Origin: an uncultured Pseudomonadota bacterium
Lineage (GTDB): Bacteria; Pseudomonadota; Alphaproteobacteria; Rs-D84
DNA length: 64,000 nt
Direction of reading: 5' to 3'
NCBI GenBank assembly: GCA_902793005.1
Contig: CADBBQ010000004.1
Coordinates: 9,396-73,395, forward strand
Positions 6,121 to 57,055 of the stretch are shown here, in pieces (position 1 is the first letter of the stretch; every line of letters begins with the position of its first letter). The position numbers and the translations under genes are program-made. The notes under the pieces are model-generated. The model was not told the origin of the DNA. It saw only the letters and a program-made list of their open reading frames with translations, and made no database searches.

Positions 6121-6417
6121 ACCCCAAAACCGTAGCGTAAATGGCACTTTTACGCTACGGTTTTGAATTTTATAATACATTGATATTACTGTAAAAAACA
6201 CCCCTGAAAGAGTAGCGAAAAAACCTAGGTTAAAAAGCAACACTTTTTTTCACTTTTTTCAAAAATCGTTTTTTGCGTAAAAACAAAGACTTATCAATTT
6301 TGACAACACCCCGTCCAACCGTCGGAAAAAAACCTAGGTTTTTTTATACTAGTTGCATAGCGAACAAACGGCGGAAATCCGCCACCAACACAACCAGAGG
6401 GGAGTAGTTTTTTTGCC

Positions 6418-8673: not shown

Positions 8674-8679
8674 TGCGTG

Positions 8680-9500
8680 CCCAACCCCGGCCCGCTTACG
8701 CTGACGCTACAGCGGGGCCACCCCTTCCCACAACGGAGTGTGGTGTGTGTCTGTGCGGCGCGCCCGTGGGAAGGGAATGCAACAAATGCCAAACCCGACA
8801 AAATGCGAAAGCGTTTTGTCATCCTGAGCGAAGTCGAAAGTGAGTCACCAACTGTGACGAACGCGGATCTGGGTTTGGCAAAGATAGAGAACTGCCCCAC
8901 CACCTTCGGTGGTCCCCCCCTTCTTTTTGTGCTGGCGCACAGAAAAGACGGGGAATGTCCGGGGGAGAAATTTTACCCCCGCCACCACCTCCGGTGGTCC
9001 CCCTCCCCACGGGGGCGGAATCACCACCCGTCGCCAAAGACTATGGGTGGCAGGCCCCCCCGGTGGGCGCGGAACAGAAAAAGCCCAGGATTCAAGGTTT
9101 ATCCTCTATTCCCGTTCGGGGTGAACCTTGAATTCTGGACTTGGAATCGGGAAAGGAAAAGTTCAGGCGGGAAAAGTTCAGGCGCTGTTCGGGTTTGCAC
9201 CGAATTCAGTTCCCTAAAACACACAAACGGCTTTGGCAAATTGTTTGGAACAGCGTAAAAAAATCCCCAGATGGGGATTTTTTATTTTGGCGACGCCGTT
9301 TCACTTTGTCGCCGTGCACAACTACCTCCCCCTCGCGCGCTGACGCTTACTCGGGTACTCCTTCTTTCATAAAGAAGGAGAATGTCCGGTGGAATACCCA
9401 CCCCGTCTTTCAGGCACCCCCCGGTGGGCGGAGAATCAAATTACCCCGTCGCCTACGGCGCCACCCCTTCTTTGTGAAAGAAGGGGACGGTGCGAGAACG
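8680..9500. repeat. Intergenic cluster of palindromic repeats (A2 element 8786-8883; CCTTCTTTCATAAAGAAGG-type hairpins)
   Basis: The same elements recur at 52440-52900 and 55240-55540 in both orientations. ORFs called across this region are repeat read-through. Confidence 0.85.
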
Positions 9501-25973: not shown

Positions 25974-26411
25974 ATGACAAGAAATGAAGTTTTATACAAT
26001 GTTATTGAAATTGTAAATGAACATAAATTGAAAGATGCACCCAAAACAACCGAATACAGTCGTCTGGCCGAGGATTTGGGGATGGATTCTTTGGATATAG
26101 TTGAAACTGGCATGGACATAGAAAGAAGATTAGATATTGAGTTTGATACAGATGAGTTCGAAGAAGTTAAATTCAATCTTAAATCAGTTAAAGATATGGT
26201 AGATTTTACGTGTAAAAAATTAAATATTCCAACCAATGGTGTTCAAAAAAACGTGGAAAAACCTGTGGTAAAACCGGTGCAACCACAAAACCCGGAAATT
26301 GAAAAATTGAAAGCGGTTGATTTGTCAAAACTGGCGGGCAAACCGGTACAATTGGGTGGCTATGAAGTTATTGTTCGCAAAATTGCCGATAACGCACAAA
26401 ATAGAAGATAA
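25974..26411 (+). CDS. Acyl-carrier-protein-like domain fused to the cassette C-terminal module
   Basis: The N-terminal 80 aa carry the phosphopantetheine-site motif LGMDSLDIVE. The C-terminus DLSKLAGKPVQLGGYEVIVRKIADNAQNRR matches the tails of 27120..27743 and 31905..33020. Confidence 0.75.
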   Translation: MTRNEVLYNVIEIVNEHKLKDAPKTTEYSRLAEDLGMDSLDIVETGMDIERRLDIEFDTDEFEEVKFNLKSVKDMVDFTCKKLNIPTNGVQKNVEKPVVKPVQPQNPEIEKLKAVDLSKLAGKPVQLGGYEVIVRKIADNAQNRR

Positions 26412-27119: not shown

Positions 27120-27743
27120 ATGAAAGATGTCCCAAACACAGAATACATTACAATTAACAAAGATGGTGTTTTTGTTGGTGGAAAACCTGCAACAAAATAT
27201 CGTGGTGTAGAAATATATGATATAGATTATGTGAAAGAAAAATTTGCATGTATGCAGGACCAAAATCCAGAAATAGAGGAATTTCATATTGGTGCGTTTA
27301 TATACTATGGTAGACATGGACGTCCGGAGGATCCATATTGGAACGTTGATTCACAAAATGCAAATGTATGGTGTCGTGTAAAATTAAAAAATTCGTCGGC
27401 GGTTACTTGGATTTTTTGTGACTGGGTCAATGATGTTGCTCGTTGTGCCTTGGAATGTATGTTTTATTACGTGGGTTCCCACATATATGCACGCTATGGC
27501 ATGAGCAGCGACTGGTTCCGGTTGCAGGTATTGAAGTATGCAAGAATTGATAAGCAAAATACAAAATTGGAAAAATTAGAAAAAGTTGATTTTCGTTCGG
27601 CAGTGTTTGGGTCGAAACAAAATGCATTAACAAATGCGTTAAAAGATACAGATTTATCGCAATTTGTTGGGAAACCTGTGCAATTAAACGGTTATAAAAT
27701 CATTGTTGAAAAAATTGCTGAAACCAAACAAAACAAAAGATAA
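27120..27743 (+). CDS. Single-module paralog of the DGR target family with a decayed (fossil) VR
   Basis: N-terminus MKDVPNTEYITINKDGVFVGGKPATKYRG and WCRVKLKN...WIF...CALEC... are homologous to the modules of 31905..33020. The tail has the shared C-terminal module. Confidence 0.7.
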   Translation: MKDVPNTEYITINKDGVFVGGKPATKYRGVEIYDIDYVKEKFACMQDQNPEIEEFHIGAFIYYGRHGRPEDPYWNVDSQNANVWCRVKLKNSSAVTWIFCDWVNDVARCALECMFYYVGSHIYARYGMSSDWFRLQVLKYARIDKQNTKLEKLEKVDFRSAVFGSKQNALTNALKDTDLSQFVGKPVQLNGYKIIVEKIAETKQNKR

Positions 27744-27913
27744 AAGGAAACACAATGTATATAAAAGAAGTTGTTAGAGCGCTATATATATGCACTGTTC
27801 CGGGTGGCGGGTTTTGTGTCGTAATTTATTGACATTAGCCAAACGTATGCTATTCTGTCGAGTACAGGAGCAGAGAGTGTCTGGATTAACTTATATAAAA
27901 AGGGCACCGAAAA

Positions 27914-29101
27914 ATGAAAAAAGATTTAAGATTTCTGGCTAATATAAAAACAACTGTACTTGGTGGTGTAATATTACCTTTGTTATTGGCGTCTTGTGGT
28001 GGTGACAAACGCAGAACTTTGGTTGTGGTTGATGAGCCTTTGCCTGGTGATGTTAAAGGGTACGCTCTACCTGCACGTGACGTAGATTGTGGCAAATTAT
28101 ACGTTGTATGTTATGACAAAGACGGCTTGTGTTCTTATTTGAATCCAAATGACACATTAAAAATTGAATTGTTGGATGTTAATGGTGTTAATGCTAACGA
28201 TGATGATAGATACGAATATGGTGCAGATTTGTACATAACTGATTACCAAGATCCGCATTCATGTGGCGGTTGCGATGATGATAGATTTAGAAAATGGTGT
28301 CTGCGTGTAGATTTATCGGATAGCACCAGAAATATGTTATTGGCAAGACGCGCCAAAGATCCAAAAAGTCTTTTTTATGTTAACAGTTGTTTAAAAAAAG
28401 ATAATGATAGTTTAAAGATTGCTAATTTAATGTTATCGAAATTAGCATCTAAAAAATCTGATGACAGAATAAATTATATAAACGAAATTCAAACCAATGG
28501 AACGCCAACAGAAAAAAATATTTTGAAAAAGATATTAAAATCTGTCAAATTTAAAAACGATCAAACTGTTGTTGACGCTGGGATTTCTAAACAATTGGGA
28601 AAATATTGGCGTGACAAAAAACGTGATATCTTGGATACTGTTACTGTCGTTCGTGTTTATACAGAATCTCGCAGTATGGTAGATAGCAATGTTGACCGTC
28701 ACTATTCGTCTTCCGATGAAGAAAAAGGTGTTCATTTAAGAGCTGCAGGGAAAGGATATTTAGGCGTTGGAAAATCATCCTCATATGTTTCCGATAATGA
28801 AGAAAGACTTGATGAAAAAGGTCTGCGCTTAAAGGCTGCCGCAAAGGGCCAATTAGGTGTTGGTACATCCGCTTCACATATTGCTTCTGATGAAAAGGCT
28901 AATATAAAAATATACGAAGGAAAGATTTTATCTGTTGTTGCCAAGGATAAAAATGGTTATACATATAATTTTTCTTTGGCACCAGAAATGAATTGCAAAG
29001 TTGGTGATAAAATCGTATTAGAATATTTTGGTCGTGTTGCTGATAATAATGGGTATCGTGATCAAATTTTGATTCATGATATTATTTATAAAAGCCGATA
29101 A
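27914..29101 (+). CDS. Lipoprotein, hypothetical
   Basis: 395 aa. Lipobox LLLASC. Internal duplicated L(R/K)AAxKGxLGVGxSxS segment. Confidence 0.65.
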   Translation: MKKDLRFLANIKTTVLGGVILPLLLASCGGDKRRTLVVVDEPLPGDVKGYALPARDVDCGKLYVVCYDKDGLCSYLNPNDTLKIELLDVNGVNANDDDRYEYGADLYITDYQDPHSCGGCDDDRFRKWCLRVDLSDSTRNMLLARRAKDPKSLFYVNSCLKKDNDSLKIANLMLSKLASKKSDDRINYINEIQTNGTPTEKNILKKILKSVKFKNDQTVVDAGISKQLGKYWRDKKRDILDTVTVVRVYTESRSMVDSNVDRHYSSSDEEKGVHLRAAGKGYLGVGKSSSYVSDNEERLDEKGLRLKAAAKGQLGVGTSASHIASDEKANIKIYEGKILSVVAKDKNGYTYNFSLAPEMNCKVGDKIVLEYFGRVADNNGYRDQILIHDIIYKSR

Positions 29102-29120
29102 AAAACAAAAGGATAAAATA

Positions 29121-29414
29121 ATGAGGAATACCAGCGCGGAATGGATTGAATGGGCAAACCAAGAATATTTTGGTATTGGCGATAACAGTGGTAATTCTGG
29201 TTGCGGGTGTGGGGGTTGTTGCATTGTTGGAGTAATCATATTGGGAACACTGGCGTTGGTGGGCTGTGGTGGATACAAAATTGCTCAATCGATGATCCAA
29301 CCCGAAAAACCAAAAGTCGAAAAAGCACAAATTACAAATAATAACGCAAAGTATAATAAATCAACGTTGTTTATAAAATCTTTGGCATTAAATCAGAAAA
29401 TTAAACAAGCATAA
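29121..29414 (+). CDS. Small Cys-rich single-pass membrane protein (paralog of 26767..27105)
   Basis: Starts MRNTSAEWIEWANQEYFGIGDNSGNSGCGCGGCCIVGVIILGTLALVGC. Confidence 0.55.
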   Translation: MRNTSAEWIEWANQEYFGIGDNSGNSGCGCGGCCIVGVIILGTLALVGCGGYKIAQSMIQPEKPKVEKAQITNNNAKYNKSTLFIKSLALNQKIKQA

Positions 29415-29424
29415 GGACACATAA

Positions 29425-29856
29425 ATGGCTGGTGCATACAGTGTATTTGACGAAAATGGACACTATAAACCCGGAACTTATAATAACGGGTATGGTTCCA
29501 AAATAGGAATGCCGGTTAAAAAAAATCCAGAATGGTATGAAAGTGATTTTCATAGCACGTCCGCTATTTATCCAACGTATGTTTATGATGTGTATCCTTA
29601 TCGTACAATGGGTGGATTGTTTGGTAATAAGCCTGTCACATACTATAACGTTCGTGTTCGGTTTAATTCTGAATCCAAAGGGATGGAGCCACCACGCGCA
29701 TCGGATTGTGCAGAAATTTATGTGGATAACAGCCCTTATCAATCATATTGGGAAGCGGTATATGAATTTCACGATGGGTTATTAAAATCTGCACAACAAA
29801 AGGCAAATGATTTTCATACCGAAATCGTAAATCAAATACGTTCGAATAAAAGATAA
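29425..29856 (+). CDS. Hypothetical Tyr/Pro-rich protein (cassette array member)
   Basis: 143 aa. Ends ...SNKR with an AGATAAAAGGAAA junction. Confidence 0.55.
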   Translation: MAGAYSVFDENGHYKPGTYNNGYGSKIGMPVKKNPEWYESDFHSTSAIYPTYVYDVYPYRTMGGLFGNKPVTYYNVRVRFNSESKGMEPPRASDCAEIYVDNSPYQSYWEAVYEFHDGLLKSAQQKANDFHTEIVNQIRSNKR

Positions 29857-30046
29857 AAGGAAAAAAAATCCGTCGATTGTGGCGGGATTTTTTTATAAAA
29901 ATACTTGATTTTCCGATATTTTTGTGTCAAAATCAGGGCACGTCGTTTGACGAAGAACACAGTTTTCGTGGTTGATTCTGTCCATAACATATTGTTTTTG
30001 GCTAAATCCACGGGAACGAGGAATTAACAGAAAAAAGGATAAAATT

Positions 30047-30883
30047 ATGGCATTGCCTACATTTACTATGAAACAATTGATGGAGGCCGGCGTTCATTTT
30101 GGACACCACACTCGTCGTTGGAACCCGTTGATGACCCCATACGTTTATGGCGTCAAAGATAAAATTCATATTATCAATTTGAACAAAACTGCACCGTTGT
30201 TGCATCGTGCATTGGTCGCATTAGAGGCCGTTGCCGCCGCCGGTGGTAAAATCTTGTTCGTTGCAACCAAGCACCAGGCCAAAGATATCGTTCGCGATGC
30301 GGCCGAACGTTGCGGTCAATACTATGTGAACAATCGTTGGTTGGGTGGTATGTTGACAAACTGGACAACGGTTTCTCAGAGCATTCGTCGTTTGAAAAAA
30401 ATGGAAAATGACATCGCAAATGCTGACAAATTGGGTTTGACCAAAAAAGAAGTCGGCGTTATGACCAAAGAAGTCGAAAAATTGCGTTCTGTGTTTGGTG
30501 GTATTTTGGAAATGCACGGAACCCCTCAGGCGATGATTGTTATTGATGTGCCGCGTGAAATGAACGCTGTGCGCGAGGCAAAAATCTTGGACATCCCAAC
30601 AATCGCTATTTGTGATACGAACGCAAATCCGGAAATGGTTGACTATCCGGTGCCGGGTAATGACGATGCGGCACGTGCGACACAGTTGTATTGCGATTTG
30701 TTCGTTGATGCAATTTTGTCGGGTATTGAAAAACGTTTGGGCGGTGCGGCGGCCAAAAAGGCGGATGCTGACACGGATGCGGCCGATGAAATCGAGGCCG
30801 ATTTGAAAGATAAAGAGGCCAAAGAAAAATCCAAGGCATCGGTGGCACGCGCGGAACGTCGTGAAAAGAAAGCCGACAAATAA
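30047..30883 (+). CDS. rpsB: 30S ribosomal protein S2
   Basis: Start at MALPTFTMKQLMEAGVHFGHHTRRWNP. Acidic/basic C-terminal tail. Confidence 0.97.
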   Translation: MALPTFTMKQLMEAGVHFGHHTRRWNPLMTPYVYGVKDKIHIINLNKTAPLLHRALVALEAVAAAGGKILFVATKHQAKDIVRDAAERCGQYYVNNRWLGGMLTNWTTVSQSIRRLKKMENDIANADKLGLTKKEVGVMTKEVEKLRSVFGGILEMHGTPQAMIVIDVPREMNAVREAKILDIPTIAICDTNANPEMVDYPVPGNDDAARATQLYCDLFVDAILSGIEKRLGGAAAKKADADTDAADEIEADLKDKEAKEKSKASVARAERREKKADK

Positions 30884-30956
30884 AAATTAGACGCTGTTCG
30901 GGGATGCGTCCCCGAACGCAGAATTTTCAATATTATAAAAAGATAAGGAAATAACA

Positions 30957-31826
30957 ATGGCAGAAGTGACAGCAAAATTGATTCAAGAACTGCGCGAAAA
31001 AACCGCGGCAGGTATGTTGGATTGCAAAAAGGCATTAATCGAAAACAATGGCGATATTGATGCGGCGGCTGACTGGTTGCGTAAAAAAGGTATTGTCAAG
31101 GCGGCATCCAAGGCTGGTCGTGTTGCGGCATCTGGTTTGGTGACCGTTGTTAAATGCGATAACTTGGGTTGTGTCGTGGAATTAAATGCCGAAACTGATT
31201 TCGTTGCCAAAAATGAAAAGTTCCAAAAATTGGTTGCCGATGTCGCAAACAAAGCATTGGAATTGTCTGGCGATTTTGATGCCACATTGGCGGCGGTCAA
31301 AGATGATATCGCGGCAACAATTTCCACAATTGGCGAAAATATGAATTTGCGTCGTATTGCCAAGGTCAATGGCGACCACGTGTATTCTTATATTCACAAT
31401 GCATTGGTGCCGGGTATGGGACAAATCGGTGTTGCGGTTGCAATCAATGGTAATGACCCGAAAATCGATGAAATTGGACCAAAAATTGCAATGCACATTG
31501 CGGCAAACAAACCGGAATATATGACGATTGCGGATGTTGACCCGGTGGCGGTTGAACGTGAACGCCGTGTTTTCATTGAATCGGGCGCGACAAATGGCAA
31601 ACCTGAAAATATCGTTGAAAAAATGGTCCAGGGTCGTTTGCAAAAATACTATGCGGAATCCGTTTTAGAAGAACAACCGTTCGTTATGGATCCAAGTAAA
31701 TCTGTGAAACAAGTTGTGGCCGAGGCCGGTGGTAAATTGGCCGGGTTTGCATACTATGTTTTGGGCGAAGGTATCCAAAAACGCGAAGATAACTTGGCGG
31801 ATGAAGTTGCAAAAATGTTGCAATAG
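30957..31826 (+). CDS. tsf: Elongation factor Ts
   Basis: 289 aa. LRE.T.AGM.DCKKAL N-terminus and TDFVAKN motif. Follows rpsB. Confidence 0.97.
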   Translation: MAEVTAKLIQELREKTAAGMLDCKKALIENNGDIDAAADWLRKKGIVKAASKAGRVAASGLVTVVKCDNLGCVVELNAETDFVAKNEKFQKLVADVANKALELSGDFDATLAAVKDDIAATISTIGENMNLRRIAKVNGDHVYSYIHNALVPGMGQIGVAVAINGNDPKIDEIGPKIAMHIAANKPEYMTIADVDPVAVERERRVFIESGATNGKPENIVEKMVQGRLQKYYAESVLEEQPFVMDPSKSVKQVVAEAGGKLAGFAYYVLGEGIQKREDNLADEVAKMLQ

Positions 31827-31904
31827 TTTTGCATAAATAACAAACAACGGAGAGAGTCGCACAGATTTTATTTGTGCGACTTTTCCATCGAAAAAGGATG
31901 AAAT

Positions 31905-33020
31905 ATGGCGGATATTTCAAATACAGAATATATTACCGTAAATGCCAATGGGATTTTTGTTGGTGGCAAACCTGCAACAACATATCGTGGTGAAGAAATA
32001 AATTTGCCAGACAGCGTGCATAGAGATTTTGCCCACATCCAAACCTTAAATAAAAATGTTGCGGAATTGCATGTGTTGTCATCGGAAACACGTGGCGAAC
32101 GTGCAAAACCGGGTAATCCATCAGGAAAACAGGGTCCAAATACGTGGTGTCGGGTAAAGTTTGAAAACGGTAATTTTGGTGCGTGGGTCTTCTACAACGA
32201 GTACGCTTCGGCCGCCTTTTGTGCGTGCTACTGTGCGGTCGACTGCGCGTACGACGTCCGTAATAGCGCGTCGTTTCGGTCTGTAGTTTTGGGTGAGACA
32301 ATTGATAAAAGTAAAGCAAAACAAAACGTATTAACAAATGCGTTGAAAGATACAAATTTGTCGCAATGTGTGCCAGATATTCCAAATACAGCATATATTA
32401 CCATAAAATACTATTGGTATTATTTTTATGTTAATCATGATGACCGTTGTTGGGTTATTGGCGCTTTTGTTGGTGGGCATCATGTAGAAAAATATCATGG
32501 TCAGACAATATATGAGTATAACGCTGACGTACGAGATTATAACGCTGAAGCACGAGATGCATACACACGCCTGTTTAATAATAGTGAGTATAATTTTAGC
32601 GATATATATCCGCGCATTGCCAGTGGTTCTATTACAGAAGTTCATGTTGGTGCATTTGAAACGCGTGGCGAATATGCAAAGCCAGGCAATCCGGATGGTG
32701 TGTTTGGTCCAAATGCATGGTGTCGTGTGAAATATAAAAATGGAGATTTAGGTCCGTGGGTCTTTGTTAACGACTGTGGTTCGGCCGCCAATTGTGCGAG
32801 AAGGTGTGTGTTTCTCTGCGCGAGCAGTATCAGAGAATCTGCATCGTTTCGGGCCGCGTTGTGTGGGCCAATTGAAAAATCGAATGCGAATCTTGCTATG
32901 ACACAAAACGCATTAACAAATGTGTTAAAAGATACAGATTTGTCTAAATTTGTTGGCACGCATAAAATCGGTGCTTATGAAATTGTTGTCCGTAAATCTG
33001 GGCAGAATACAAGGGGGTAA
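31905..33020 (+). CDS. Two-module DGR target-family protein (tandem fusion, each module ending in a VR-like segment)
   Basis: 371 aa. Module 1 is MADISNTEYITV...WCRVKFENGNFGAWVF...FRSVVLGE. Module 2 is PDIPNTAYITI...WCRVKYKNGDLGPWVF...FRAALCGP. Ends with the shared C-terminal module. Confidence 0.8.
   Translation: MADISNTEYITVNANGIFVGGKPATTYRGEEINLPDSVHRDFAHIQTLNKNVAELHVLSSETRGERAKPGNPSGKQGPNTWCRVKFENGNFGAWVFYNEYASAAFCACYCAVDCAYDVRNSASFRSVVLGETIDKSKAKQNVLTNALKDTNLSQCVPDIPNTAYITIKYYWYYFYVNHDDRCWVIGAFVGGHHVEKYHGQTIYEYNADVRDYNAEARDAYTRLFNNSEYNFSDIYPRIASGSITEVHVGAFETRGEYAKPGNPDGVFGPNAWCRVKYKNGDLGPWVFVNDCGSAANCARRCVFLCASSIRESASFRAALCGPIEKSNANLAMTQNALTNVLKDTDLSKFVGTHKIGAYEIVVRKSGQNTRG
32184..32297 (+). 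repeat. VR4: VR-like segment, near A-only relationship to the TR
   Basis: 15 substitutions at TR adenines and 2 at non-A positions within the core (ACG to GAG, AGT to GCT). Its 3' flank GCGTCGTTTCGGTC is shared with VR3, not with the TR. Confidence 0.7.
32757..32867 (+). repeat. VR5: decayed VR-like segment
   Basis: Aligns to the TR through the invariant islands TGGGTCTT, TCGGCCGCCAATTGTGCG, TGCGCG and TTTCGGG, but has many non-adenine mismatches. Confidence 0.6.
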
Positions 33021-33022
33021 AG

Positions 33023-33199
33023 ATGTATAAAAAAACTGAAAATTATCCAATTAAAAATCCAATCGTGTTATGTGATAAAAATGGAAATTATTATGTTGCG
33101 TTTGATTCTAAAATTGGACATGAAGAATTTTCCGGCACACGCGAAGATGTTTTACAACAATTGGTTCGTCGTGTTAAAAGAATTTTGCATGTCAGATAA
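33023..33199 (+). CDS. Small hypothetical protein (58 aa; below the ORF-track cutoff)
   Basis: ATG 3 nt after the 31905..33020 stop. Translation MYKKTENYPIKNPIVLCDKNGNYYVAFDSKIGHEEFSGTREDVLQQLVRRVKRILHVR. Confidence 0.45.
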   Translation: MYKKTENYPIKNPIVLCDKNGNYYVAFDSKIGHEEFSGTREDVLQQLVRRVKRILHVR

Positions 33200-33216
33200 T
33201 TTTTAAAGGATGTATT

Positions 33217-33636
33217 ATGAACAGAAATCGGGTTGGTAAATTTAGAATGGATGACAACGAAAATCAGGCTGATATTACCTTGCTGGATGATAACAGTATA
33301 GTAATGATACCAAAGTCATACGTTGTAAAACGTGATGTAAATGGCAATGATATTCCTTTGTTGGCACCTGGGGATCGTTTCACAATTTTGCAAGATAATA
33401 TGGGTTATGGTTTTGCATATGTTTATAATAAACATTTGTATATGGTGGAAACACCATATGATGCCCGTGCCTTTGTTCGTGATATACCTTTTATGGACAG
33501 AATTGTTTTTGCCAGTGCTTTGCGTCGTGAGGTTGTACGTCGCAAACAAACACCGTCGTTGCGGGCGTATAAAAATTTGCAAAAATTGATTGCTGATCGT
33601 ATTGATACAGAACAAAGATTGATGAAACAATTATAA
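33217..33636 (+). CDS. Hypothetical protein
   Basis: 139-aa ORF with AAAGGA RBS. No motif recognised. Confidence 0.5.
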   Translation: MNRNRVGKFRMDDNENQADITLLDDNSIVMIPKSYVVKRDVNGNDIPLLAPGDRFTILQDNMGYGFAYVYNKHLYMVETPYDARAFVRDIPFMDRIVFASALRREVVRRKQTPSLRAYKNLQKLIADRIDTEQRLMKQL

Positions 33637-33723
33637 TTATTAAAAACCGCCAAATTTTTGGCGTTTTTTTGTTGAAAATGTCGGATTTTCTACTACTATG
33701 ACTATGAACCAAAGGAGTGTTCC

Positions 33724-34632
33724 ATGGCGAAGAAAAAAAGAAACTATAGTACTACCCCAAAAAGTATCACTGTTGATTTGAATAAGGTTCATATTGGTGG
33801 ACAATATGCGGATATGTTGCGTGCCAGCAATCAGGATAAATCGAATGCGGCATTGGTTACAAAACCAATTTTGGAACTGGAACCTGCACATATTGCGTCG
33901 GAACGCAGAGAATATGTTGAAAAGTGGAAATATTGGATGCAAGAGCCACGTTGGTGTGCTGGTTATTCTTGGTTGTTGTTGCGTGAAAATTATGAACTTT
34001 ATGAACGTGAAGAAGGATTGACCCGGGACGAATATTACGAAATTGCAAAGGTCGCCATCAATACAGGGCCAGAACAAATGAATCGGTTGCGTACAGATAA
34101 AGTGTCAGATGTGCGCTATTTTGAATTATGTAAAATTATGGCATCGCATGCGGCGTTTTATGGTGTTGATTATGAAAAATTGAACCGTGGGACATCAAAT
34201 GGCACGTATAAAATAGCAAATTTTGTAATTGATTCTTTTTATAAGGCAGAACATGAATGTCAGATTCAAAATGCGGCTCGCGGTCTAAGACGTGGTGAAA
34301 AATATCAAGATTATATGAGTGAGAGGGATGCTGCCCAGTTATTGTTTTATATGTGGTTAATTGTTCATAATGAATTGTTGGTTGGTGTTCGTGATAAAGA
34401 AATTACTGAATTTGTTGATAAAGGTTTGGTAAATCCAATGGATGCAGACAGATATATTGTTAAATTAACACAAAATGCGGCAAAGTCCCCTTGTACCGGG
34501 TTGATTAAATCCGTTAGATTGGGCCAGGGTTTACAAGTTCCTGAATTTTGTAAAAAAGCGCAGGACAAGGTGTTGGATATATATGAGGCATTGGTAGAGA
34601 AAAAATCAAATATGTTTGATTTTACCAGATAG
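33724..34632 (+). CDS. Hypothetical protein
   Basis: 302-aa ORF. No motif recognised. A terminator hairpin follows. Confidence 0.55.
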   Translation: MAKKKRNYSTTPKSITVDLNKVHIGGQYADMLRASNQDKSNAALVTKPILELEPAHIASERREYVEKWKYWMQEPRWCAGYSWLLLRENYELYEREEGLTRDEYYEIAKVAINTGPEQMNRLRTDKVSDVRYFELCKIMASHAAFYGVDYEKLNRGTSNGTYKIANFVIDSFYKAEHECQIQNAARGLRRGEKYQDYMSERDAAQLLFYMWLIVHNELLVGVRDKEITEFVDKGLVNPMDADRYIVKLTQNAAKSPCTGLIKSVRLGQGLQVPEFCKKAQDKVLDIYEALVEKKSNMFDFTR

Positions 34633-34654
34633 CAAAAAACTCTGTTCAGGGAAT

Positions 34655-34692
34655 TACCCGCAAAATTTAATAATTTTGCGGGGCTTTTTTAT
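34655..34692 (+). terminator. Rho-independent terminator
   Basis: CCCGCAAAATT-TAAT-AATTTTGCGGG followed by a T-run. Confidence 0.75.
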
Positions 34693-34761
34693 TGTATCTT
34701 GGGGTTGCAACAGATAATTTTTCATGATATTATTTTTTCTGATATAGAAAAAGGTTTTGTG

Positions 34762-35973
34762 ATGAAAAATAATTTGATGTTTGAATTGACCCAGCGTGGT
34801 TTTATTAATCAATGTTCTAATATGAATGCGGTTGCAGATTTATTGGATAACGGACAAATTGCAGTTTATTTGGGTTCGGATCCAACCGCGGATTCTTTGC
34901 ATGTGGGGCATTTGGTTCCGGTTATGATGATGCGCTGGTTGCAAAAATATGGCCATAAACCATTGATGTTGGTCGGTGGGGCAACGGGGCGTATTGGTGA
35001 TCCATCGGGACGTGATACGGGTCGCCCAATGATGACCGAAGAAGTTTTGGCAAAAAATGTTGCAGGGTTAAAAAAATCTTATTCTAAATTTTTGCGTTTT
35101 GGTGATGGCGAATCCGATGCGTTAATTGTTGATAACTATGATTGGATGCGTGGTTATTCGCATTTGGATTTCTTGGCGCAATATGGTTTGGATTTTACAA
35201 TTCCACGTATGCTTTCTATGGAAAGTGTGAAAAAGCGTTTGGAAAATGGTATGACTTTCTTGGAATTTAATTATATGACTTTCCAGGCGGTTGATTTCTT
35301 GACACTTTATAAAGAACATAATTGTGTTTTGCAACTGTGTGGTGCAGACCAATGGGGTAATGCGATTATGGGTGTGGAATTGATTCGTAAAAAAATGGGC
35401 AAGGAAGCCTATGTGTTATCTACATCCCTGATTACCGACGCAAACGGAAATAAAATTGGAAAATCTGCGGGTAATGCGGTTTGGGTTAATGAAGATAAAA
35501 CGACGCCTTATGAATATTATCAATATTTCCGTAATACACCGGATGATTTGGTTGAAAAATTCTTGAAAATTTTTACCGAAATTCCATTGGAAGAAATTGC
35601 AGAATTGTCGCGCAAGCAAGGTGCGGAATTGAACGAGGTTAAAAAAATACTGGCATATTCCGCAACCGAAATTGCACATGGGACGGACGCTGCGCGGGAT
35701 GCCGAGGCGGCCGCGGCGGCGTTGTTCGCCGGTGGTGCGAACAGTGCCAATGTGCCGTTTGTTGAATTAGAAATGCGCGAACCAATGAAAATTTTGGATT
35801 TCTTGGTTGCAATTAAATTGTTTGATTCTAAATCCGAGGCGCGTCGTAATGTCGAACAAGGCGGTATTCAAATCGATAATGAAAAAATTACTGATAAAGA
35901 ATTCGTCGTGTCAAATGCGGAACATATGGTTCAAAAAGGAAAGAAAACATTTTTGCGTGTTGTTGTAAAATAA
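34762..35973 (+). CDS. tyrS: Tyrosine--tRNA ligase
   Basis: Start at MKNNLMFELTQRGF. HIGH-type motif (SLHVGHLV), KMSKS-type motif (KIGKSAGN), C-terminal S4-like domain. Confidence 0.95.
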   Translation: MKNNLMFELTQRGFINQCSNMNAVADLLDNGQIAVYLGSDPTADSLHVGHLVPVMMMRWLQKYGHKPLMLVGGATGRIGDPSGRDTGRPMMTEEVLAKNVAGLKKSYSKFLRFGDGESDALIVDNYDWMRGYSHLDFLAQYGLDFTIPRMLSMESVKKRLENGMTFLEFNYMTFQAVDFLTLYKEHNCVLQLCGADQWGNAIMGVELIRKKMGKEAYVLSTSLITDANGNKIGKSAGNAVWVNEDKTTPYEYYQYFRNTPDDLVEKFLKIFTEIPLEEIAELSRKQGAELNEVKKILAYSATEIAHGTDAARDAEAAAAALFAGGANSANVPFVELEMREPMKILDFLVAIKLFDSKSEARRNVEQGGIQIDNEKITDKEFVVSNAEHMVQKGKKTFLRVVVK

Positions 35974-35977
35974 CATA

Positions 35978-36088
35978 ATGAAAAAAATACTGATTATTTT
36001 AATCGGTTGCGTGGTATTTGTGTCGCCGGCATTTTGTGCCAGTGAATTGTCGCGTATTCAATCAGAAATTAAACAGGTCGAACAATAA
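35978..36088 (+). other. Detached signal-peptide fragment of the EnvC-like gene, ended by an in-frame TAA
   Basis: ATG at 35978 encodes MKKILIILIGCVVFVSPAFCASELSRIQSEIKQVEQ, then TAA at 36086-36088. It is in the same frame as ORF 36098..37054. Confidence 0.7.
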
Positions 36089-36097
36089 AATAAAAAG

Positions 36098-37054
36098 TTG
36101 GCCGAACAGGTCAAGCAATCTGATAAAAACGTTGCACAAACAAAACAAGATTTGGTGCGAACCGCCGACAGGGTGAGTTCTTTGGAAGAACAACGCGGCA
36201 AAATGCAAAATAAAATTGATGAATTGGATGCCCGGCGGGCCAAAATTACAAAAGAACTGGAAACAAATAAATCACGCGTTTTTGATTCTGTGTCTGGGAT
36301 TTTATATATGGCGATGCGCCCCAGTTTTGATGCAAAAAATATGAACGATTATGTTTTGACATCGGCAATTTTGTCGGGTGTGTCTGGACAATTTGATGCC
36401 GATATACAACGGGCTTCGCAACAATTAGATGAATTGGAAAAAATTCGTAATGCACGCAGTGTTGAAAAAGAAAAATTGGACAGAACGGCAAAAAAATACA
36501 CTCGCGAACGAAACGAGTTGGATAAATTGTTAAAAACACGCAGTGCGCAAAATGAAAAATTAAAAACTGAACACGCCGCTTTACAGAAAAAATTAAAGGC
36601 GTTGTCGGAACGTGCAAAAAATATTTCGGAATTGTCCGCCGGCGTTGGCAGTTCGGAAATGTCATCGGATGCGCGTTTTTCACGACGGAAATTAAATTTG
36701 CCTGTGCGTGGACGGATTGTTGTAAGGTTTGGTGAAAAAACGGCACTGGGGTTGACATCGGATGGTTGGCGGATTCGCACATCGGGTGATGCGTTGGTGA
36801 CGGCGCCCGCCGATGGTGTGGTAAAGTTTGCCGATACTTTCCGCGGTTTTGGTCGGGTTGTTATTATGTCGCATAAAAATGGTTATAATACCGTTATCAC
36901 AAATATGGGACGCGTGGATGTTGTTCCAAATCAAGAGGTTTTGGCCGGCGAACCAATCGGTCGCATCAATCCGGATAAACGCGAAATGTATATGGAGGTG
37001 CGTCGTGGTAACAAGGCGGTTGACCCGGCGCGTTTGTTCCGCGAAGAAAATTAA
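36098..37054 (+). CDS. EnvC-like M23 (LytM-domain) peptidase: coiled-coil plus LytM domain, without its own signal peptide
   Basis: 318 aa. Long coiled-coil then a C-terminal M23 fold (G..I.....DG.V.FA....GFG.VVI..H..GY.T...). Precedes ctpA as in many alphaproteobacteria. Confidence 0.85.
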   Translation: MAEQVKQSDKNVAQTKQDLVRTADRVSSLEEQRGKMQNKIDELDARRAKITKELETNKSRVFDSVSGILYMAMRPSFDAKNMNDYVLTSAILSGVSGQFDADIQRASQQLDELEKIRNARSVEKEKLDRTAKKYTRERNELDKLLKTRSAQNEKLKTEHAALQKKLKALSERAKNISELSAGVGSSEMSSDARFSRRKLNLPVRGRIVVRFGEKTALGLTSDGWRIRTSGDALVTAPADGVVKFADTFRGFGRVVIMSHKNGYNTVITNMGRVDVVPNQEVLAGEPIGRINPDKREMYMEVRRGNKAVDPARLFREEN

Positions 37055-51859: not shown

Positions 51860-52975
51860 AGTCCGTCCCCTTCTTTATGAAAGAAGGGGTGGCATCCGAA
51901 GGATGACGGGGTAATTGTGCCGGGCGATGTAGTGAAACGAAATCGCCATAAAAAGGTTTTAAATCACAATTACCTCCCCCTACGCCGATAAATCGGCTTC
52001 GGGTACTCCTTCTTTCATAAAGAAGGAGACGGCGCATAAATGCGCCGGGGAAAAAGAGGAAAACATAGAGTTCAAAATTCAAGGTTTTGGTCCCATTCCC
52101 GTTCGGGGCTGGAACCTTGGACGTTGAACTTTGGGATAAACAAAGTTAGGTCGTGTGTCCCCCCGGGATGCCCCGAAATCCAACTCCCATTGAAAATAAT
52201 GGCTGTTCCCGGGGAGTGTGACAAAAACACGGTAGTGTTTTTGTCAAAGCAAATAACAAAGTACAAAGTACAAAGTACAAAGTACAAAGTACAAAGTACA
52301 AAGTGCAAAGTACAAATGATGCCGTGTGGCAACGCCACACACATATGGATATTCTCCTTCTTTATGAAAGAAGGAGTACCCGAGTAAGCGTCAGCGCGCG
52401 AGGGGGAGGTAGTTGTGAAAAGGTCTAAACTGCTGGTGTGGTTGTGATTATAGAGAAAAATATTATCACAACTACCCCACCGTCTTCGACGGTCCCCCCC
52501 TTCTTTCATAAAGAAGGGGAATGTCCGAGAGAAGATGGCGGTCCCCCCTTCTTTGGGAAAGAAGGGAATATCCGAGAGGGGCGGAATGTTTGCCAAACCG
52601 ACAAAACGCGTTTGCGTCTTGTCATCCTGAGCGAAGTCGAAAGTGAGTCACCAACGGTGACGAACGTGGATCTGGGTTTGGCAAAGACAAGGAACTGCCC
52701 CGTCACTCAACCGCGTTGCGGTTTCGTGCCACCCCTTCTTTTTACCCTGCGGGTAGAAAAGACGGGGAATGTCCGAGAGGGTGGCGCGGTGGCGCCGGGC
52801 ATCAAATATGCCTGGATCCGCGCTCGCGGAACGCTCGCTTTCGACTGCGTTCGATTACTTATGTGGGGTTGCCACAACGTAATCTCACTACGCTCAGGAT
52901 GACAAAAAATGTTGCAACATTTTTTGTCTGAATAAAAAAAAGAGAGAGAAACAAAATAAAAAAAAAGGATAGGAA
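51860..52975. repeat. Dense array of palindromic repeats and (CAAAGTA)n upstream of the DGR target gene
   Basis: Contains CCTTCTTT(C/A)(A/T)(T/G)AAAGAAGG hairpins (about 51868, 52006, 52353, 52497, 52545), heptamer run 52255-52316, A2 element 52600-52688 and A1 element (reverse orientation) 52797-52930. Confidence 0.85.
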
Positions 52976-52977
52976 AG

Positions 52978-55011
52978 ATGAAAAAGGTAAGTTTATTTAC
53001 GATTTTATTGTTATCTGGGGTGGGGGCATCGCCGGCGATGGCGGCGTTGACGTCCGCGGATGACATCCTGTCTGAATTGATGATTTATGGTGCGGTGTAT
53101 GGTGATACGGTTGCGGGCGGCCTGGGCGTGTCATATCGTTATCACGGTGATGACGTCGCGACCGAATATTTACAACATACCGACGGCACGGTGTATCACA
53201 AATCATACACATCGGGCCTGGGCACCGCCGGGGACAAGGGCGATTGGCAAAATCATTGGGAAACATATTTCCCACGTCGTGCTTTGTCCGACGGTACGCA
53301 ATTATCCGACGGCGTGACCGTGCACGGAATCTCGCAATGCACGCGCATAGGGGGCACTTTCGCCGTCCCAAATTACGATATGACCGACCCATATACCACC
53401 GTGACCGAGGATGGCGAACGCCAGTGTTGGTGCAAATTAACGCATGTACGCGAGGGCACGAGCGCCCCTGCAAACCTGGATGCGTTGGGTTATTCGGTTG
53501 GGGCCTCGTCTTGGGTCTTCCACAACACGTCCGGTTCGGCCGCCAATTGTGCGTACTACTGTGCGAACGGCTGCGCGAGCGCCGTCCGTCCTAACGCGGG
53601 CTTTCGGGCTGCGGTTTTTGGTGGGGGCGCCTTGGGGCATGCGACCCCGGCGGATATGTGTGGGCAAAATTTAGCGAACGGAAAATTATATGATTACCAG
53701 GTCCCGCGTGTGGCAAAACTGGCCGCCGGGACATATACCGCATCCATTGCCGCCGCGGACGGCGGCAAATGGATGTTGCGGTTACGCGGCGTCGCAGACA
53801 ATACCGCCGTCACGGGCGAAGCCCTGACGGCGGCGCTGGCGTCGAGTGGTTTGGCACTCGACGACAGCGAAATTTCGAATCGCGACGGGTGGGTTTTTGG
53901 CAATGCGGCCGACGCCAATGCTTTGACTTTTACAATTAGGTCCGGCGAATACATCGTCGAAATCGCGAAACAGGACGCCACCGGCGCACAGGATTTAATG
54001 CTGGAACACGGGGATGTGGCGAATGCCTATGTCGCGCCAACGCCGTGTATCCGCATCGCCGGGACGAAAATCGCGGCCGCGGCGTTCGAACGCGCCGATG
54101 CGGTGCGCGCGCGGTTGGTTAATGTCGTTGACCACGTCGTCAGCCAAACTATTACCCAGGCCGGCCACATCGCCACATTACAAACGCAAAAACAAACCCG
54201 CCCGGCCGACGACCCGACGGACGCAAATAACGCCGAAAATTGCCCCGAGGGGAAAAAATGCTTGCTGGTGACGGACGAAAACAAAACGCCGCACTGGTAC
54301 GAAATTTTTGACCCGATACACGAGTGGTATGATGCGTGGGTTACCGCCGGTAAACCCGCCGTCAAAGTGGAAATGGACGGCAGTAACTATTCATTTTATA
54401 ACGCGTTCTATCGCGGGGACAAAACGTGGCGCAAAACATATATCGACGGAACGACATCAACATATGACCGTCCGTTTGACCACGCGACGCGCTGCACAAA
54501 CCCCAGTTATAACACCGAAACGCAAAAAGCTCGTCCGTGCTATTCCGAGGTTGGAATGTTTAAAACACTGGGCGATGGCGAATGGGCCGAGGTTTATACG
54601 TCTGGCGACGGCACGAATTCACCGGTTGGTGTGGTGTATGGCATATCCAAGTGCACATCGGTCGCGGGACCAACAAATTACACCGGTGGTGGAACGCTAC
54701 TGTCGCAATTGTCCGCCGCGGACCAGGCAAAGTGGGCGGAATTGCCGGCTTTGCACGGTCAACCAGAACGCGAAGGATACGACAGCGAGAGTTTCAAACA
54801 ATGCTGGTGCAAGGTGGATGGCGTTGGTGTCCCGGGTGCGGATGGAAACCCTGCAAACGGAAGTATCTATCCGGTTGGGGCCTCGTCTTGGGTCTTCGGC
54901 CGCACGGGCGGTTCGGCCGCCATTTGTGCGAGCTACTGTGCGCGCGACTGCGCGTCCAACGTCCGTGTTTACGCGGGCTTTCGGGCTGCGGTTTTTGGTG
55001 GGCTGGAATGA
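52978..55011 (+). CDS. Secreted DGR variable protein with two lectin-like VR-bearing modules
   Basis: 677 aa. Signal peptide ...SPAMA. Module ends are ...CWCKLTHV...VGASSWVFHNTSGSAANCAYYCANGCASAVRPNAGFRAAVFGG (internal) and ...CWCKVDGV...VGASSWVFGRTGGSAAICASYCARDCASNVRVYAGFRAAVFGGLE (C-terminal). Confidence 0.92.
   Translation: MKKVSLFTILLLSGVGASPAMAALTSADDILSELMIYGAVYGDTVAGGLGVSYRYHGDDVATEYLQHTDGTVYHKSYTSGLGTAGDKGDWQNHWETYFPRRALSDGTQLSDGVTVHGISQCTRIGGTFAVPNYDMTDPYTTVTEDGERQCWCKLTHVREGTSAPANLDALGYSVGASSWVFHNTSGSAANCAYYCANGCASAVRPNAGFRAAVFGGGALGHATPADMCGQNLANGKLYDYQVPRVAKLAAGTYTASIAAADGGKWMLRLRGVADNTAVTGEALTAALASSGLALDDSEISNRDGWVFGNAADANALTFTIRSGEYIVEIAKQDATGAQDLMLEHGDVANAYVAPTPCIRIAGTKIAAAAFERADAVRARLVNVVDHVVSQTITQAGHIATLQTQKQTRPADDPTDANNAENCPEGKKCLLVTDENKTPHWYEIFDPIHEWYDAWVTAGKPAVKVEMDGSNYSFYNAFYRGDKTWRKTYIDGTTSTYDRPFDHATRCTNPSYNTETQKARPCYSEVGMFKTLGDGEWAEVYTSGDGTNSPVGVVYGISKCTSVAGPTNYTGGGTLLSQLSAADQAKWAELPALHGQPEREGYDSESFKQCWCKVDGVGVPGADGNPANGSIYPVGASSWVFGRTGGSAAICASYCARDCASNVRVYAGFRAAVFGGLE
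53495..53625 (+). repeat. VR1 (internal variable repeat)
   Basis: 131 nt collinear with the TR. 13 substitutions, all at TR adenines. No other mismatch. Confidence 0.92.
54872..55004 (+). repeat. VR2 (C-terminal variable repeat)
   Basis: 133 nt collinear with the TR. 18 substitutions, all at TR adenines. No other mismatch. Ends 7 nt before the stop codon. Confidence 0.93.
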
Positions 55012-55021
55012 TAAACCTTTT

Positions 55022-55054
55022 CGCATCAAAAACCCTGTGCGGGTTTTTGATGCG
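55022..55054 (+). other. 14-bp-stem hairpin 18 nt downstream of VR2
   Basis: CGCATCAAAAACCC-TGTGC-GGGTTTTTGATGCG, a perfect inverted repeat. Confidence 0.8.
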
Positions 55055-55059
55055 GGTGG

Positions 55060-55745
55060 ACGACCCAACCCTGGTTGCACCAATGGTGCAACCACCCCTT
55101 CCCTGGCCAGGGAAGGGGGAACTGAGGCGTAAATGGGGTCCCACGGAATTGGGAAATTCCGTGGGCGAAAATGGGGGGTGCGGGGGCGACTCCCCCGCCG
55201 CGCGCAGCGCGGATTTGCCAAACCGGACAAAAGCCAATGGCTTTTGTCATCCTGAGCGAAGTCGAAAGTGAGTCACCAACGGTGACGAACGCGGATCTGG
55301 GTTTGGCAAGGGCAAATTTGTTGGCGCGGCGGCGCCGGGCATCAAATATGCCTGGATCCACGCTCGCGAAACGCTCGCTTTCGACTGCGTTCGATTACTT
55401 ATGGGGCGGTGCCTCAACGTAATCTCACTACGCTCAGGATGACAAAAACGCGGATGCGTTTTTGTTAACAAATTACCCCGTCATCCTTCGGATGCCACCC
55501 CTTCTTTGGGAAAGAAGGGGACGGTGCGAGAGCCGGATGCACGATTTTTCAGACTAAAACACGGTAGTGTTTTTGTTAAAGTACAAAGTACAAAGTACAA
55601 AGTACAAATAATGCCGTGTGGCAACGCCACACACATATGGGACATTAATTGAACTTTGAACTTTGAAAACTGAACTCTGAAAAATGGTGTATCACTGGTA
55701 AAACCCGTGGTTCAGGTGTCAGTTGCTGGGTCGGATTCGGCGTGT
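55060..55745. repeat. Palindromic repeat and heptamer array between the target gene and the TR
   Basis: A2 element 55225-55312, A1 element (reverse) 55337-55466, CCTTCTTTGGGAAAGAAGG hairpin about 55496, (CAAAGTA)n 55578-55608, (AACTTTG)n 55646-55680. Confidence 0.85.
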
Positions 55746-55748
55746 TGG

Positions 55749-55880
55749 CGGTTGGGGCCTCGTCTTGGGTCTTCAACAACACGAACAGTTCGGCCGCCAA
55801 TTGTGCGAACAACTGTGCGAACAACTGCGCGAACAACGTCCGTAATAACGCGGGCTTTCGGGCTGCGGTTTTTGGTGGGC
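55749..55880 (+). repeat. DGR template repeat (TR)
   Basis: CGGTTGGGGCCTCGTCTTGGGTCTTC AAC AAC ACG AAC AGT TCGGCCGCC AAT TGTGCG AAC AAC TGTGCG AAC AAC TGCGCG AAC AAC GTCCGT AAT AAC GCGGGCTTTCGGGCTGCGGTTTTTGGTGGGC. The 26 adenines are confined to 14 codons. All invariant blocks are adenine-free. Confidence 0.92.
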
Positions 55881-55884
55881 TCCT

Positions 55885-56700
55885 GGGAATCGGTGTTATG
55901 ACTTTATCCCAGATAAAGTTTGGCCAACCTGTGGGGACAAAGGATGCAACAAAGTACAAAGTACAAAGTACAAATAATGTTGAACTTTGGATGAAATCCT
56001 TTTCAGATGATGCCGACAAAAAACACGGTAGTGTTTTTGTCAAAGTACAAAGTACAAATAACAAAGTACAAAGTACAAAGTACAAAGTACAAATAATGTT
56101 GAACTTTGAACTTTGGATTGGTGGATTCTGTTTCGAATTGTGCCGATTTATCAAGGCGGAGTGATATTACCGCATTGCAAACAAAAACGCGTTCGCGTTT
56201 TTATCAAAGTACAAAGTACAAATAACAAAGTACAAATAGTGTGTCGGCATAGCCGACGGCAACAATTGAACTTTGAACTTTGAACTTTGAAAACTGATAT
56301 GTTTGCTTTGAAATAAATACACAGGGGGGTGTTGGGTCAGTAATTCTGTTCTGTATCGTGGTGACCACCCGACGCCCCAAAGGGCTATGGGTGGCAGGCC
56401 TCCCTTCGCCCCAATAGGGCTATGGGTGGCAGGCCTCCCTTCGCCCCAAATACAAAAACGCGGACGCGTTTTTGTCATTGCGAGCGAACGAGTTCAATTT
56501 GCGTGCAACGCAAAGCCGAACGAGTGAGACGTGGCAATCCAGTCAATAATAAAGTCCAGCCTGCGGCTGGTGCTTTAATAGACCTGGATCCCCACGTGTC
56601 GCAAAACTGCGAATGCACGACATCGCAGGTTTTGCTCCCTCGGGATGACACAACGTTGAAAACGTTGTGTCTGAAATTTGAATTAACAATGGAGAGATAA
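55885..56700. repeat. Heptamer runs and palindromic or tandem repeats between the TR and the accessory ORF
   Basis: (CAAAGTA)n at 55958-55985, 56040-56093 and 56205-56235. (AACTTTG)n at 56096-56112 and 56266-56295. A roughly 35-bp unit CCCCAA(A/T)AGGGCTATGGGTGGCAGGCCTCCCTTCG occurs twice at about 56377-56447. Confidence 0.8.
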
Positions 56701-56704
56701 AAAA

Positions 56705-57031: not shown

Positions 57032-57055
57032 TTTTTTCGTTGGTGGTTGCTGAAT

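Follow-up and report, generated by a model that had tools for sequence, protein, structure and literature searches.

How a diversity-generating retroelement (DGR) abandons a target gene, and what becomes of that gene afterwards, is the question raised by a 371-residue open reading frame (ORF) at positions 31905-33020 of the window studied here, a stretch of 64,000 nucleotides (64 kb) of contig CADBBQ010000004.1 from an uncultured alphaproteobacterium. In retrohoming, a DGR copies a template repeat (TR) into a variable region (VR) of its target and randomizes the adenines, so that at its non-adenine positions a live VR keeps being restored to the TR sequence. The ORF carries two stretches, VR4 and VR5, that resemble the TR of a DGR elsewhere in the window. 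It is a head-to-tail fusion of two diverged paralogous modules and is no longer a live target. We consider it probable that both modules are former targets, last served by a TR with a different 3′ flank and drifting since then.

A BLAST search of the window with VR4 returns six copies of about 112 nt, all on the plus strand, starting at 8557, 32184, 32757, 53512, 54889 and 55766 (E values of 1e-22 to 1e-24). In the copy at 55766-55879, which is the TR, all variable codons are AAC or AAT; together with the reverse transcriptase (RT) gene at 57047-58081 this copy makes up the one DGR found in the window. Mismatches to the TR were counted over a core bounded by the outermost TR adenines, which comprises 26 A and 48 non-A sites, and over a 3′ flank consisting of the next 30 nt.

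55766-55879, plus strand: TR of the resident DGR, AAC-rich, adenine at 26/26 variable positions
57047-58081, plus strand: DGR RT with a PF00078 match (E 9e-12), IGNLTSQ at residue 184 and YCDD at residue 216
53512-53625, plus strand: VR1, active, internal to the 677-residue ORF 52978-55011 (residues 179-216); mismatches at 13/26 A, 0/48 non-A core and 0/30 flank sites, that is 13 A-only mismatches and flanks identical to the TR
54889-55002, plus strand: VR2, active, at the C-terminus of ORF 52978-55011; 18/26 A (A-only), 0/48 non-A core, 0/30 flank
8557-8670, plus strand: VR3, static, at the C-terminus of the 751-residue ORF 6418-8673; perfect core and foreign flank, 16/26 A, 0/48 non-A core, 12/30 flank
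32184-32297 (core 32193-32266), plus strand: VR4, frozen former VR in module 1 of the fused ORF; 15/26 A, 2/48 non-A core, 8/30 flank
32757-32870, plus strand: VR5, decayed former VR in module 2 of the fused ORF; 17/26 A, 13/48 non-A core, 13/30 flank
27120-27743, plus strand: single-module paralogue of 207 residues with an unrecognizable former VR (alignments, per-site count)
27408-27611, plus strand: decayed VR-like stretch of this paralogue, longer by about 15 codons and bearing another FR motif (DFRSAVFG, 27588-27611), the second of the paralogue; counted from 27408, 21/26 A, 24/48 non-A core, 26/30 flank

The RT combines an RVT_1 domain with the [LIV]GxxxSQ and YxDD motifs of the DGR clade, and its relatives, at 72-99% identity, are found in cassettes with TRs. 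VR1 and VR2 differ from the TR at adenines only. The initial annotation gave VR4 15 A-site and two non-A core changes, which is exactly what the per-site count returns (the latter being ACG to GAG and AGT to GCT), and it rightly saw many non-A mismatches in VR5; the non-A counts of VR3, VR4 and VR5, which it allowed might not differ, are 0, 2 and 13. The exclusively A-to-N differences of a live VR are thus found in the core of VR3, and not in VR4 or VR5. In both of these mismatches nevertheless concentrate on adenine sites (Fisher p = 4e-7 for VR4 and 1.6e-3 for VR5; 8.5e-3 for the paralogue), and this strong adenine-specific enrichment supports VR4 and VR5 being former DGR targets. They stand out as GC-rich islands (57% and 55% GC) against 38% GC in the remainder of the 371-residue gene.

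Turnover was followed in Logan contigs of four metagenomes and in orthologous loci; such contigs drop rare variants, and three of the four main runs (X1-X3) come from one study. Mapping at 80% likeness mixed contigs of the TR, VR1 and VR2, and the comparison of samples was therefore limited to contigs with an anchor in unique flanking sequence. Variation between samples (X1-X4) is seen in both VR1 and VR2. The VR1 contig entered from unique upstream sequence is identical to the window in X2 and in X3 has 15 differences from both the window and X2, and all listed variant positions of VR1 are among the 26 TR-adenine positions. Contigs of VR2 break at 54897, and its variants lie at TR-A positions; the one listed variant off these positions, at 54880, is located 5′ of VR2. 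Population hypervariability in the cassette 52978-58081 is restricted to positions of TR adenines. In the orthologous locus L011, where the TR is the same and the RT is 99% identical, VR2 likewise differs from the TR at adenines only, and the TR itself is unaltered in X2, X3 and L011.

VR3, VR4 and VR5 show no turnover between strains or samples at contig level, where rare variants could be missed. VR3, despite its perfect core, is static, with no differences in contigs covering 8300-8712 (X1) and 8300-8729 (X2 and X3). VR4 is identical in X1, X2, X3, X5 and the orthologous loci L001 and L002, the five differences of the X5 allele all falling outside VR4, and has two changes in a third locus, L003 (AGC to AAC and TCG to TTG). 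VR5 is identical in X1, X5, L001 and L002 and has one change in L003. Over the whole gene, 19 of 1116 nt separate L001 and L002 from the window, all of them outside VR4 and VR5, and L003 differs at 83 aligned positions, gaps included. Activity is binary: VR1 and VR2 outpace point mutation, whereas VR3, VR4 and VR5 are without turnover at contig resolution, and ORF 31905-33020 is no longer a live target. The series from active to fossil that was proposed from the sequence alone holds as far as the non-A and flank mismatch counts are concerned, which climb from VR1 and VR2 over VR3, VR4 and VR5 to the paralogue; it does not hold for activity, which is all-or-none and not graded.

The architecture of the fused gene follows from alignments of its modules and from comparison with its orthologues, which have 371, 371 and 365 residues.

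31905-33020, plus strand: fused two-module ORF of 371 residues (ORF list, module alignments and AlphaFold2 model), with no signal peptide visible by eye
31905-32372, plus strand: module 1 (residues 1-156), delimited by alignment to single-module relatives, tail cut after ...QNVLTNALKDTNLSQCV; pLDDT of the AlphaFold2 model 88.7
32373-33017, plus strand: module 2 (residues 157-371), tail intact (...DLSKFVGTHKIGAYEIVVRK), two insertions specific to the lineage
32364-32381, plus strand: fusion junction, CAATGTGTG followed by CCAGATATT (..QCV and PDI..), placed by comparison with L003
32517-32558, plus strand: 21-nt tandem duplication in module 2 (YNADVRD/YNAEARD), one copy of which is absent from L003

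Both modules and the 207-residue paralogue have in common an N-terminus of the form xDIPNTEYITxN..G.FVGGKPAT.YRG, a WCRVK...W(V/I)F core, the VR and a tail, QNALTNALKDTDLS.FVGKPVQLNGY.I.V.K, inside which module 1 stops at ...LSQCV. The module boundaries of the initial annotation, with module 1 ending in ...ALKDTNLSQCV (residue 156) and module 2 beginning with PDIPNTAYITI (residue 157), align as stated, and the head-to-tail fusion that it deduced from them is borne out. Single modules canonically start with M(T/A)DIPNTEYIT, and the junction of L003, which has 6 extra nt and reads C-V-D-M-T-D-I, has kept the ATG-ACA-GAT start of module 2. The two modules are 49% identical outside the VR and belong to different paralogue clades of the module tree, where module 1 clusters with modules of other metagenome-assembled genomes (MAGs) at 68-76% identity and module 2 forms a long branch. 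The gene is therefore a fusion of two diverged paralogues, and a recent tandem duplication is ruled out. In the AlphaFold2 model of the full ORF the same fold is predicted twice, with a disordered linker at residues 132-157. Fusion is recurrent in the module family, since some of its proteins have 2 to 5 matched stretches (e.g. P0025, P0095 and P0155) and two-module relatives have differing junctions. Contigs of a sheep rumen metatranscriptome (X11) run from the end of tsf through module 1 and over module 2 including VR5 (31770-33017), which suggests that the fused gene is transcribed, although contig data cannot separate RNA from DNA carry-over.

The feature that separates the live from the frozen copies is the 3′ flank.

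32268-32281, plus strand: T-type 3′ flank GCGTCGTTTCGGTC of VR4, an exact match to the VR3 flank at 8641-8654; these are its only two occurrences in the window

In characterized DGRs, the target has to match the TR just 3′ of the last variable codon for the cDNA to be integrated. A match to the TR of the kind seen at an initiation of mutagenic homing (IMH) site is absent from the 3′ flanks of VR4, VR5 and VR3, which deviate at 8, 13 and 12 of 30 nt, starting 3 nt after the last variable codon. That VR3 and VR4 have a common 3′ flank differing from the TR had been noticed before and is exact: both carry the 14-mer GCGTCGTTTCGGTC, at 8641 and 32268, where the resident TR reads GCGGGCTTTCGGGC and the TRs of two related loci, L016 and L018, read GCGTCGTTCCG. 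At the flank codon all three of VR3, VR4 and VR5 are TCG (GCG TCG TTT CGG, versus GCG GGC TTT CGG in the resident TR). RT homologues of 72-84% identity lead to five related cassettes with their own TRs, whose flanks are window-like in L014 and L015 (GCG GGC TT. CG.), GCG TCG TTC CG in L016 and L018 and different again in L019. Because their TCG codon is shared with the TRs of two sister DGRs, VR3, VR4 and VR5 look like relics of another TR or flank type, and because the flank of VR3 and VR4 is the TR type of a sister lineage, the decay series reflects both the time elapsed since abandonment and a switch of TR or flank type. Our inference is that VR3, VR4 and VR5 are inactive because of this flank mismatch, and that they owe the TCG codon to the TR variant by which they were last served.

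The probable history of ORF 31905-33020, in which the order of events is likewise our inference, would then start from two paralogous modules, members of a family of small proteins used as a DGR target in rumen Alphaproteobacteria. Their genes would have been joined head to tail by a deletion that took away about 24 last codons of the first, the spacer and the start codon of the second. Both module VRs would once have been rewritten by mutagenic retrohoming, which would account for the concentration of differences on TR adenines and for GC-rich VRs in an AT-rich gene. A TCG-type TR, representing either an earlier state of the resident element or an element of a donor strain, is the most likely last one to have homed into VR3, VR4 and VR5, which would have been orphaned when the resident TR and the live targets VR1 and VR2 carried the GGC type. 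With a mismatched 3′ flank a VR would receive no cDNA, retain its last content and drift by ordinary mutation, and such drift may be read from the non-A core changes, from none in VR3 and two in VR4 to 13 in VR5 (with module indels) and 24 in the paralogue (with an insertion). Module 1 and the paralogue would have been retained as proteins of fixed sequence, module 2 being apparently neutral. Modules may be gained and lost as cassettes through recombination between short direct repeats at their junctions, and the only neighbouring module with a still live appearance in a close relative would have been lost from the window.

Several observations weigh against this history. A TR that perfectly matches VR3 or VR4 in core and flank was found neither in the scans nor in the five related cassettes, so the TCG-type donor has to be postulated. 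When JGI metagenome contigs were scanned for exact matches to the 64-nt TR core, a single contig was returned, L011, which has the resident GGC flank; a degenerate VR pattern run on GTDB genomes and IMG/VR returned VR-like copies only and no TR; and none of the TRs of the five related cassettes is a better fit to VR3 and VR4 than the resident one (3-6 non-A core mismatches). The clean core of VR3 (0/48) next to a flank with 12/30 mismatches is hard to square with an old abandonment and would fit a source, recent or continuing, that combines the window-type core with a TCG flank. At low frequency, VR3 or VR4 may still be diversified, since Logan contigs drop rare variants, and X1-X3 are a single study. 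The rate of synonymous substitution (dS) of the gene versus L001 is just 0.038, so that the comparisons in which the VRs are unchanged cover a short time. The ratios of nonsynonymous to synonymous substitution rates (dN/dS) versus L001 and L003, 0.12-0.14 for module 1 and, with small counts, 0.98-1.22 for module 2, rest on 9 to 35 substitutions per comparison; from these values module 1 appears to be under purifying selection and module 2 appears to evolve about neutrally.

VR3 and VR4 could instead still be live, served by a second DGR with a TCG-type TR outside the 64-kb window or homed only rarely. TCG-type TRs do exist in the cassettes of L016 and L018, and contigs from X3 and X10 with at least 93% identity to the 40-90 nt upstream of VR4 enter other VRs, one of which is adenine-only over 30 letters. 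It is the contrast between the perfect core of VR3 and its diverged flank, not fully explained by abandonment, that keeps this alternative alive. However, VR3 is unchanged in X1-X3 and VR4 in X1, X2, X3, X5, L001 and L002 while VR1 and VR2 vary in X1-X3, the exact-core scan gave a GGC-flank TR only, and VR4 has at least two non-A core mismatches to every TR recovered. We regard continued activity of VR3 and VR4, by either route, as unlikely.

Two further alternatives concern the origin of the mismatches. The non-A differences of VR4 and VR5 might stem from non-canonical mutagenesis by the DGR, by RT misincorporation or repair at integration, in place of decay: differences other than A-to-N occur in 23% of DGRs, and the possibility was raised for one DGR whose targets differ in pattern (Wu et al. 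2018, PMC5758913). Here, however, the same non-A changes are fixed across all orthologues and samples, the flanks have diverged as well, and module 2 has indels and a dN/dS near 1; the same RT has left no non-A change in VR1 or VR2 of the window nor in VR2 of L011, and we hold this origin to be extremely improbable. VR4 and VR5 might also never have been retrohomed, their likeness to the TR being ordinary domain paralogy and the A-site pattern reflecting freely varying positions of the family. While the adenine enrichment is indeed modest for VR5 and the paralogue (p = 1.6e-3 and 8.5e-3), and the variable positions of the family coincide with the AAC codons of the TR by construction, 46 of the 48 non-A sites of VR4, synonymous third positions among them, are the same as in the TR, and the rest of module 1 has no DNA similarity to other target genes and 38% GC versus 57% in VR4. 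Such a sharp block of identity is the footprint of cDNA replacement and makes descent by paralogy alone very unlikely.

In the surroundings of the fused gene, dS versus L001 is 0.51 for rpsB, 0.16 for tsf, 0.038 for the 371-residue gene, 0.58 for tyrS and 1.05 for the next gene, which encodes an M23 peptidase (window 29972-37054). From this sharp dip, the segment with the module gene appears to have been exchanged recently between well-separated lineages.

33006-33021, plus strand: single copy of the 16-nt direct repeat AATACAAGGGGGTAAA, two copies of which bracket a third module in L001
33023-33199, plus strand: 58-residue ORF (MYKKTENYP...), orphaned C-terminal domain of the third module, fused to the module in L001 (P0011) and in P0008-P0013

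In L001 and L002 the third module (P0011) directly follows the 371-residue gene and is fused in frame to the 58-residue domain (L001 11120-11734). Over 20 nt the flank of its VR is of the GGC type, the core shows a single non-A mismatch to the TR of the window, and in L001 this VR is apparently live. The window and L003 have one copy of AATACAAGGGGGTAAA followed directly by the 58-residue ORF, and recombination between the AATACAAGGGGGTAAA repeats would explain the presence or absence of the third module. Between the 58-residue ORF and tyrS, a 1.46-kb stretch (33217-34632) with two ORFs (139 and 302 residues, no Pfam match) is absent from L001 and L002, and at least its first part is found in L003.

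The single-module paralogue at 27120-27743 was said to retain similarity at the protein level only. N-terminus, WCRVK...W(V/I)F core and tail are common to it and the modules, and BLAST with VR4 finds no match in its VR-like stretch. Its orthologue in L020 has 11 nt differences, four of which change an amino acid. At 27510-27611 the paralogue has the FR motif DWFRLQVL and, 26 codons later, DFRSAVFG, followed by a normal tail; the two motifs may be what a deletion left behind after taking out most of a second module.

The family profile collects 435 clusters at 50% identity, most of which are single modules of 130-210 residues. P0095, P0119 and P0155 are larger proteins with 3 to 5 repeats of CWCR(V/I)T...W(V/I)...C..C..C, so the VR-bearing sub-domain also occurs as tandem repeats in other proteins; the start of P0095 resembles a signal peptide. 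In the AlphaFold2 model of module 1 (pLDDT 88.7, pTM 0.80), a prediction from a shallow alignment, the VR lies on a helix (residues 103-120) with a C-A-x-x periodicity. Foldseek finds no match to this model at E <= 0.001 in PDB or BFVD, the family profile has no match among PDB sequences, and Pfam and NCBIfam give no family match. A C-type lectin fold (CLec or FGE-sulfatase-like, the class of Mtd, TvpA and TaqVP) was considered and, judging from the predicted model and these searches, does not seem to apply.

Taken together, a tentative and possible reading, to which we give less credence than to the abandonment itself, is that the modules are an undescribed DGR target scaffold that spreads as cassettes and is switched by the match of the VR 3′ flank to the current TR variant. 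This scaffold would be a domain of about 130 residues without a detectable C-type lectin or immunoglobulin fold, with its variable codons predicted on one helix face in a C-A-x-x repeat. Its cassettes, arranged in tandem arrays, would comprise single genes, fused sets of 2 to 5 modules and modules fused to tails that are acyl carrier protein (ACP)-like or of other kinds, and frozen VRs would record earlier states of the TR.

The resident element resembles the DGR of Bordetella phage BPP-1 (Mtd/TR/Brt/Avd, with an IMH at the 3′ end of the VR) in its I/LGxxxSQ RT, in having TR adenines that map to variable codons (AAC) and in the identity of VR1 and VR2 to the TR 3′ of the last adenine. The inactive copies with an altered 3′ flank fit the IMH requirement at the VR 3′ end described by Guo et al. 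2008, as cited in a passage of PMC4891356. Unlike that of BPP-1, the cassette is chromosomal in a rumen alphaproteobacterium, has a 108-residue ORF before the RT and no Avd gene seen in the window, its target domain is not recognizably a C-type lectin, and there are several targets, two of which share an ORF. Wu et al. 2018 (PMC5758913) document multiple, internal and non-adjacent targets as well as targets with non-A differences. As in Treponema denticola and other multi-target or non-adjacent DGRs (PMC5758913; Nimkulrat et al. 2016, PMC4891356), one TR has several VRs, some of them internal, and VR-like copies lie tens of kb from the RT (25 kb for VR4 and 48 kb for VR3); unlike in those systems, the distant copies are static while the adjacent ones vary, and have a different 3′ flank type. 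Clean and 'dirty' mismatch patterns among co-resident targets are also known from DGR ANKO01000117.1_3531_4562, where one of the targets shows seven non-A differences and an indel and another is A-to-N only (Wu et al. 2018, PMC5758913). There the cause, non-canonical or independent mutation, was left open, whereas the orthologue and population data presented here favour decay. The target arrays of the same survey (PMC5758913) similarly contain neighbouring paralogous target modules; here, in contrast, modules are fused in one ORF, and the arrays, which include frozen as well as live members, flank rpsB-tsf on either side at a distance from the RT.

The case is largely one of expected abandonment of a DGR target and contributes direct evidence that abandoned targets decay, together with a connection to flank type. 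In DGR surveys any TR-like repeat whose differences are mostly A-to-N is usually taken for a target, and the meaning of non-A mismatches is left open. In the present window live, orphaned and decayed VRs of one TR family stand side by side, and public population data show which of them turn over. VR3 with its clean core is no more active than VR5, which calls for caution when remote targets are called from mismatch patterns alone. The resulting model of abandonment, a mismatch of flank or TR type followed by drift, fusion or loss of the cassette by repeat recombination, is testable, and the module family, being unannotated and without structural match, may be a new kind of variable scaffold.

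Within the DGR cassette itself, a further ORF lies between TR and RT.

56705-57031, plus strand: 108-residue ORF, candidate accessory gene, directly upstream of the RT and present in every related cassette fetched

This ORF and the RT lie about 1.2 kb downstream of the TR. It has no NCBIfam match, and among its relatives there is no precomputed Pfam match. No Avd-like ORF (PF05635) is seen between TR and RT of the window cassette (55880-57046), and the relative L016 has a gene of this family at 6072-6470. Downstream of the live VRs, a search for a conserved hairpin gave just a weak imperfect one inside the GGC-type flank, which is too weak as evidence. ORF 52978-55011, which adjoins the TR, has two live VRs within one reading frame, and P0163, its 666-residue orthologue in L016, has the same two-VR layout with TCG-type flanks.

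The sequence is present in bovine and sheep gut metagenomes, and the related loci are from MAGs of rumen Alphaproteobacteria. At 32145-32192, contigs of X3, X7 and X10 with at least 93% identity to the sequence just upstream of VR4 run into different VRs, and one of them (GCC GAC ACG TAC AGT TCG GCC GCC GTT) is off the TR at adenines only over the 30 letters shown; diversification may still go on in module-1-like genes of co-occurring strains. Hot spots for module arrays lie on either side of rpsB-tsf: L004 has five modules in 8 kb, and L001 (including 6863-7943) has two before rpsB and three after tsf. L020 (1-4254) has a 229-residue gene and a 304-residue two-module gene just before the orthologue of the paralogue and is without the equivalent of window 27758-29883.

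An ACP-like protein at 25974-26411 (PP-binding, E 2.5e-6) ends in a tail of about 30 residues, DLSKLAGKPVQLGGYEVIVRKIA (from 26319), that is the same as the tail of the modules, and P0021 is a fusion of an ACP with a module. The shared C-terminal tail behaves as a portable unit, perhaps for sorting or docking. Finally, dispersed repeats of 60-190 nt, 75-99% identical and in part inverted, are located at 5760-5947, 8787-8961, 9317-9497, 52220-52908, 55214-55448, 55547-55673 and 56019-56297. They flank both large GC-rich target genes and occupy the space between VR2, TR and RT; they resemble miniature mobile elements and, read as ORFs, give recurring peptides such as FVILSEVESESPTVTNADLGLAK.

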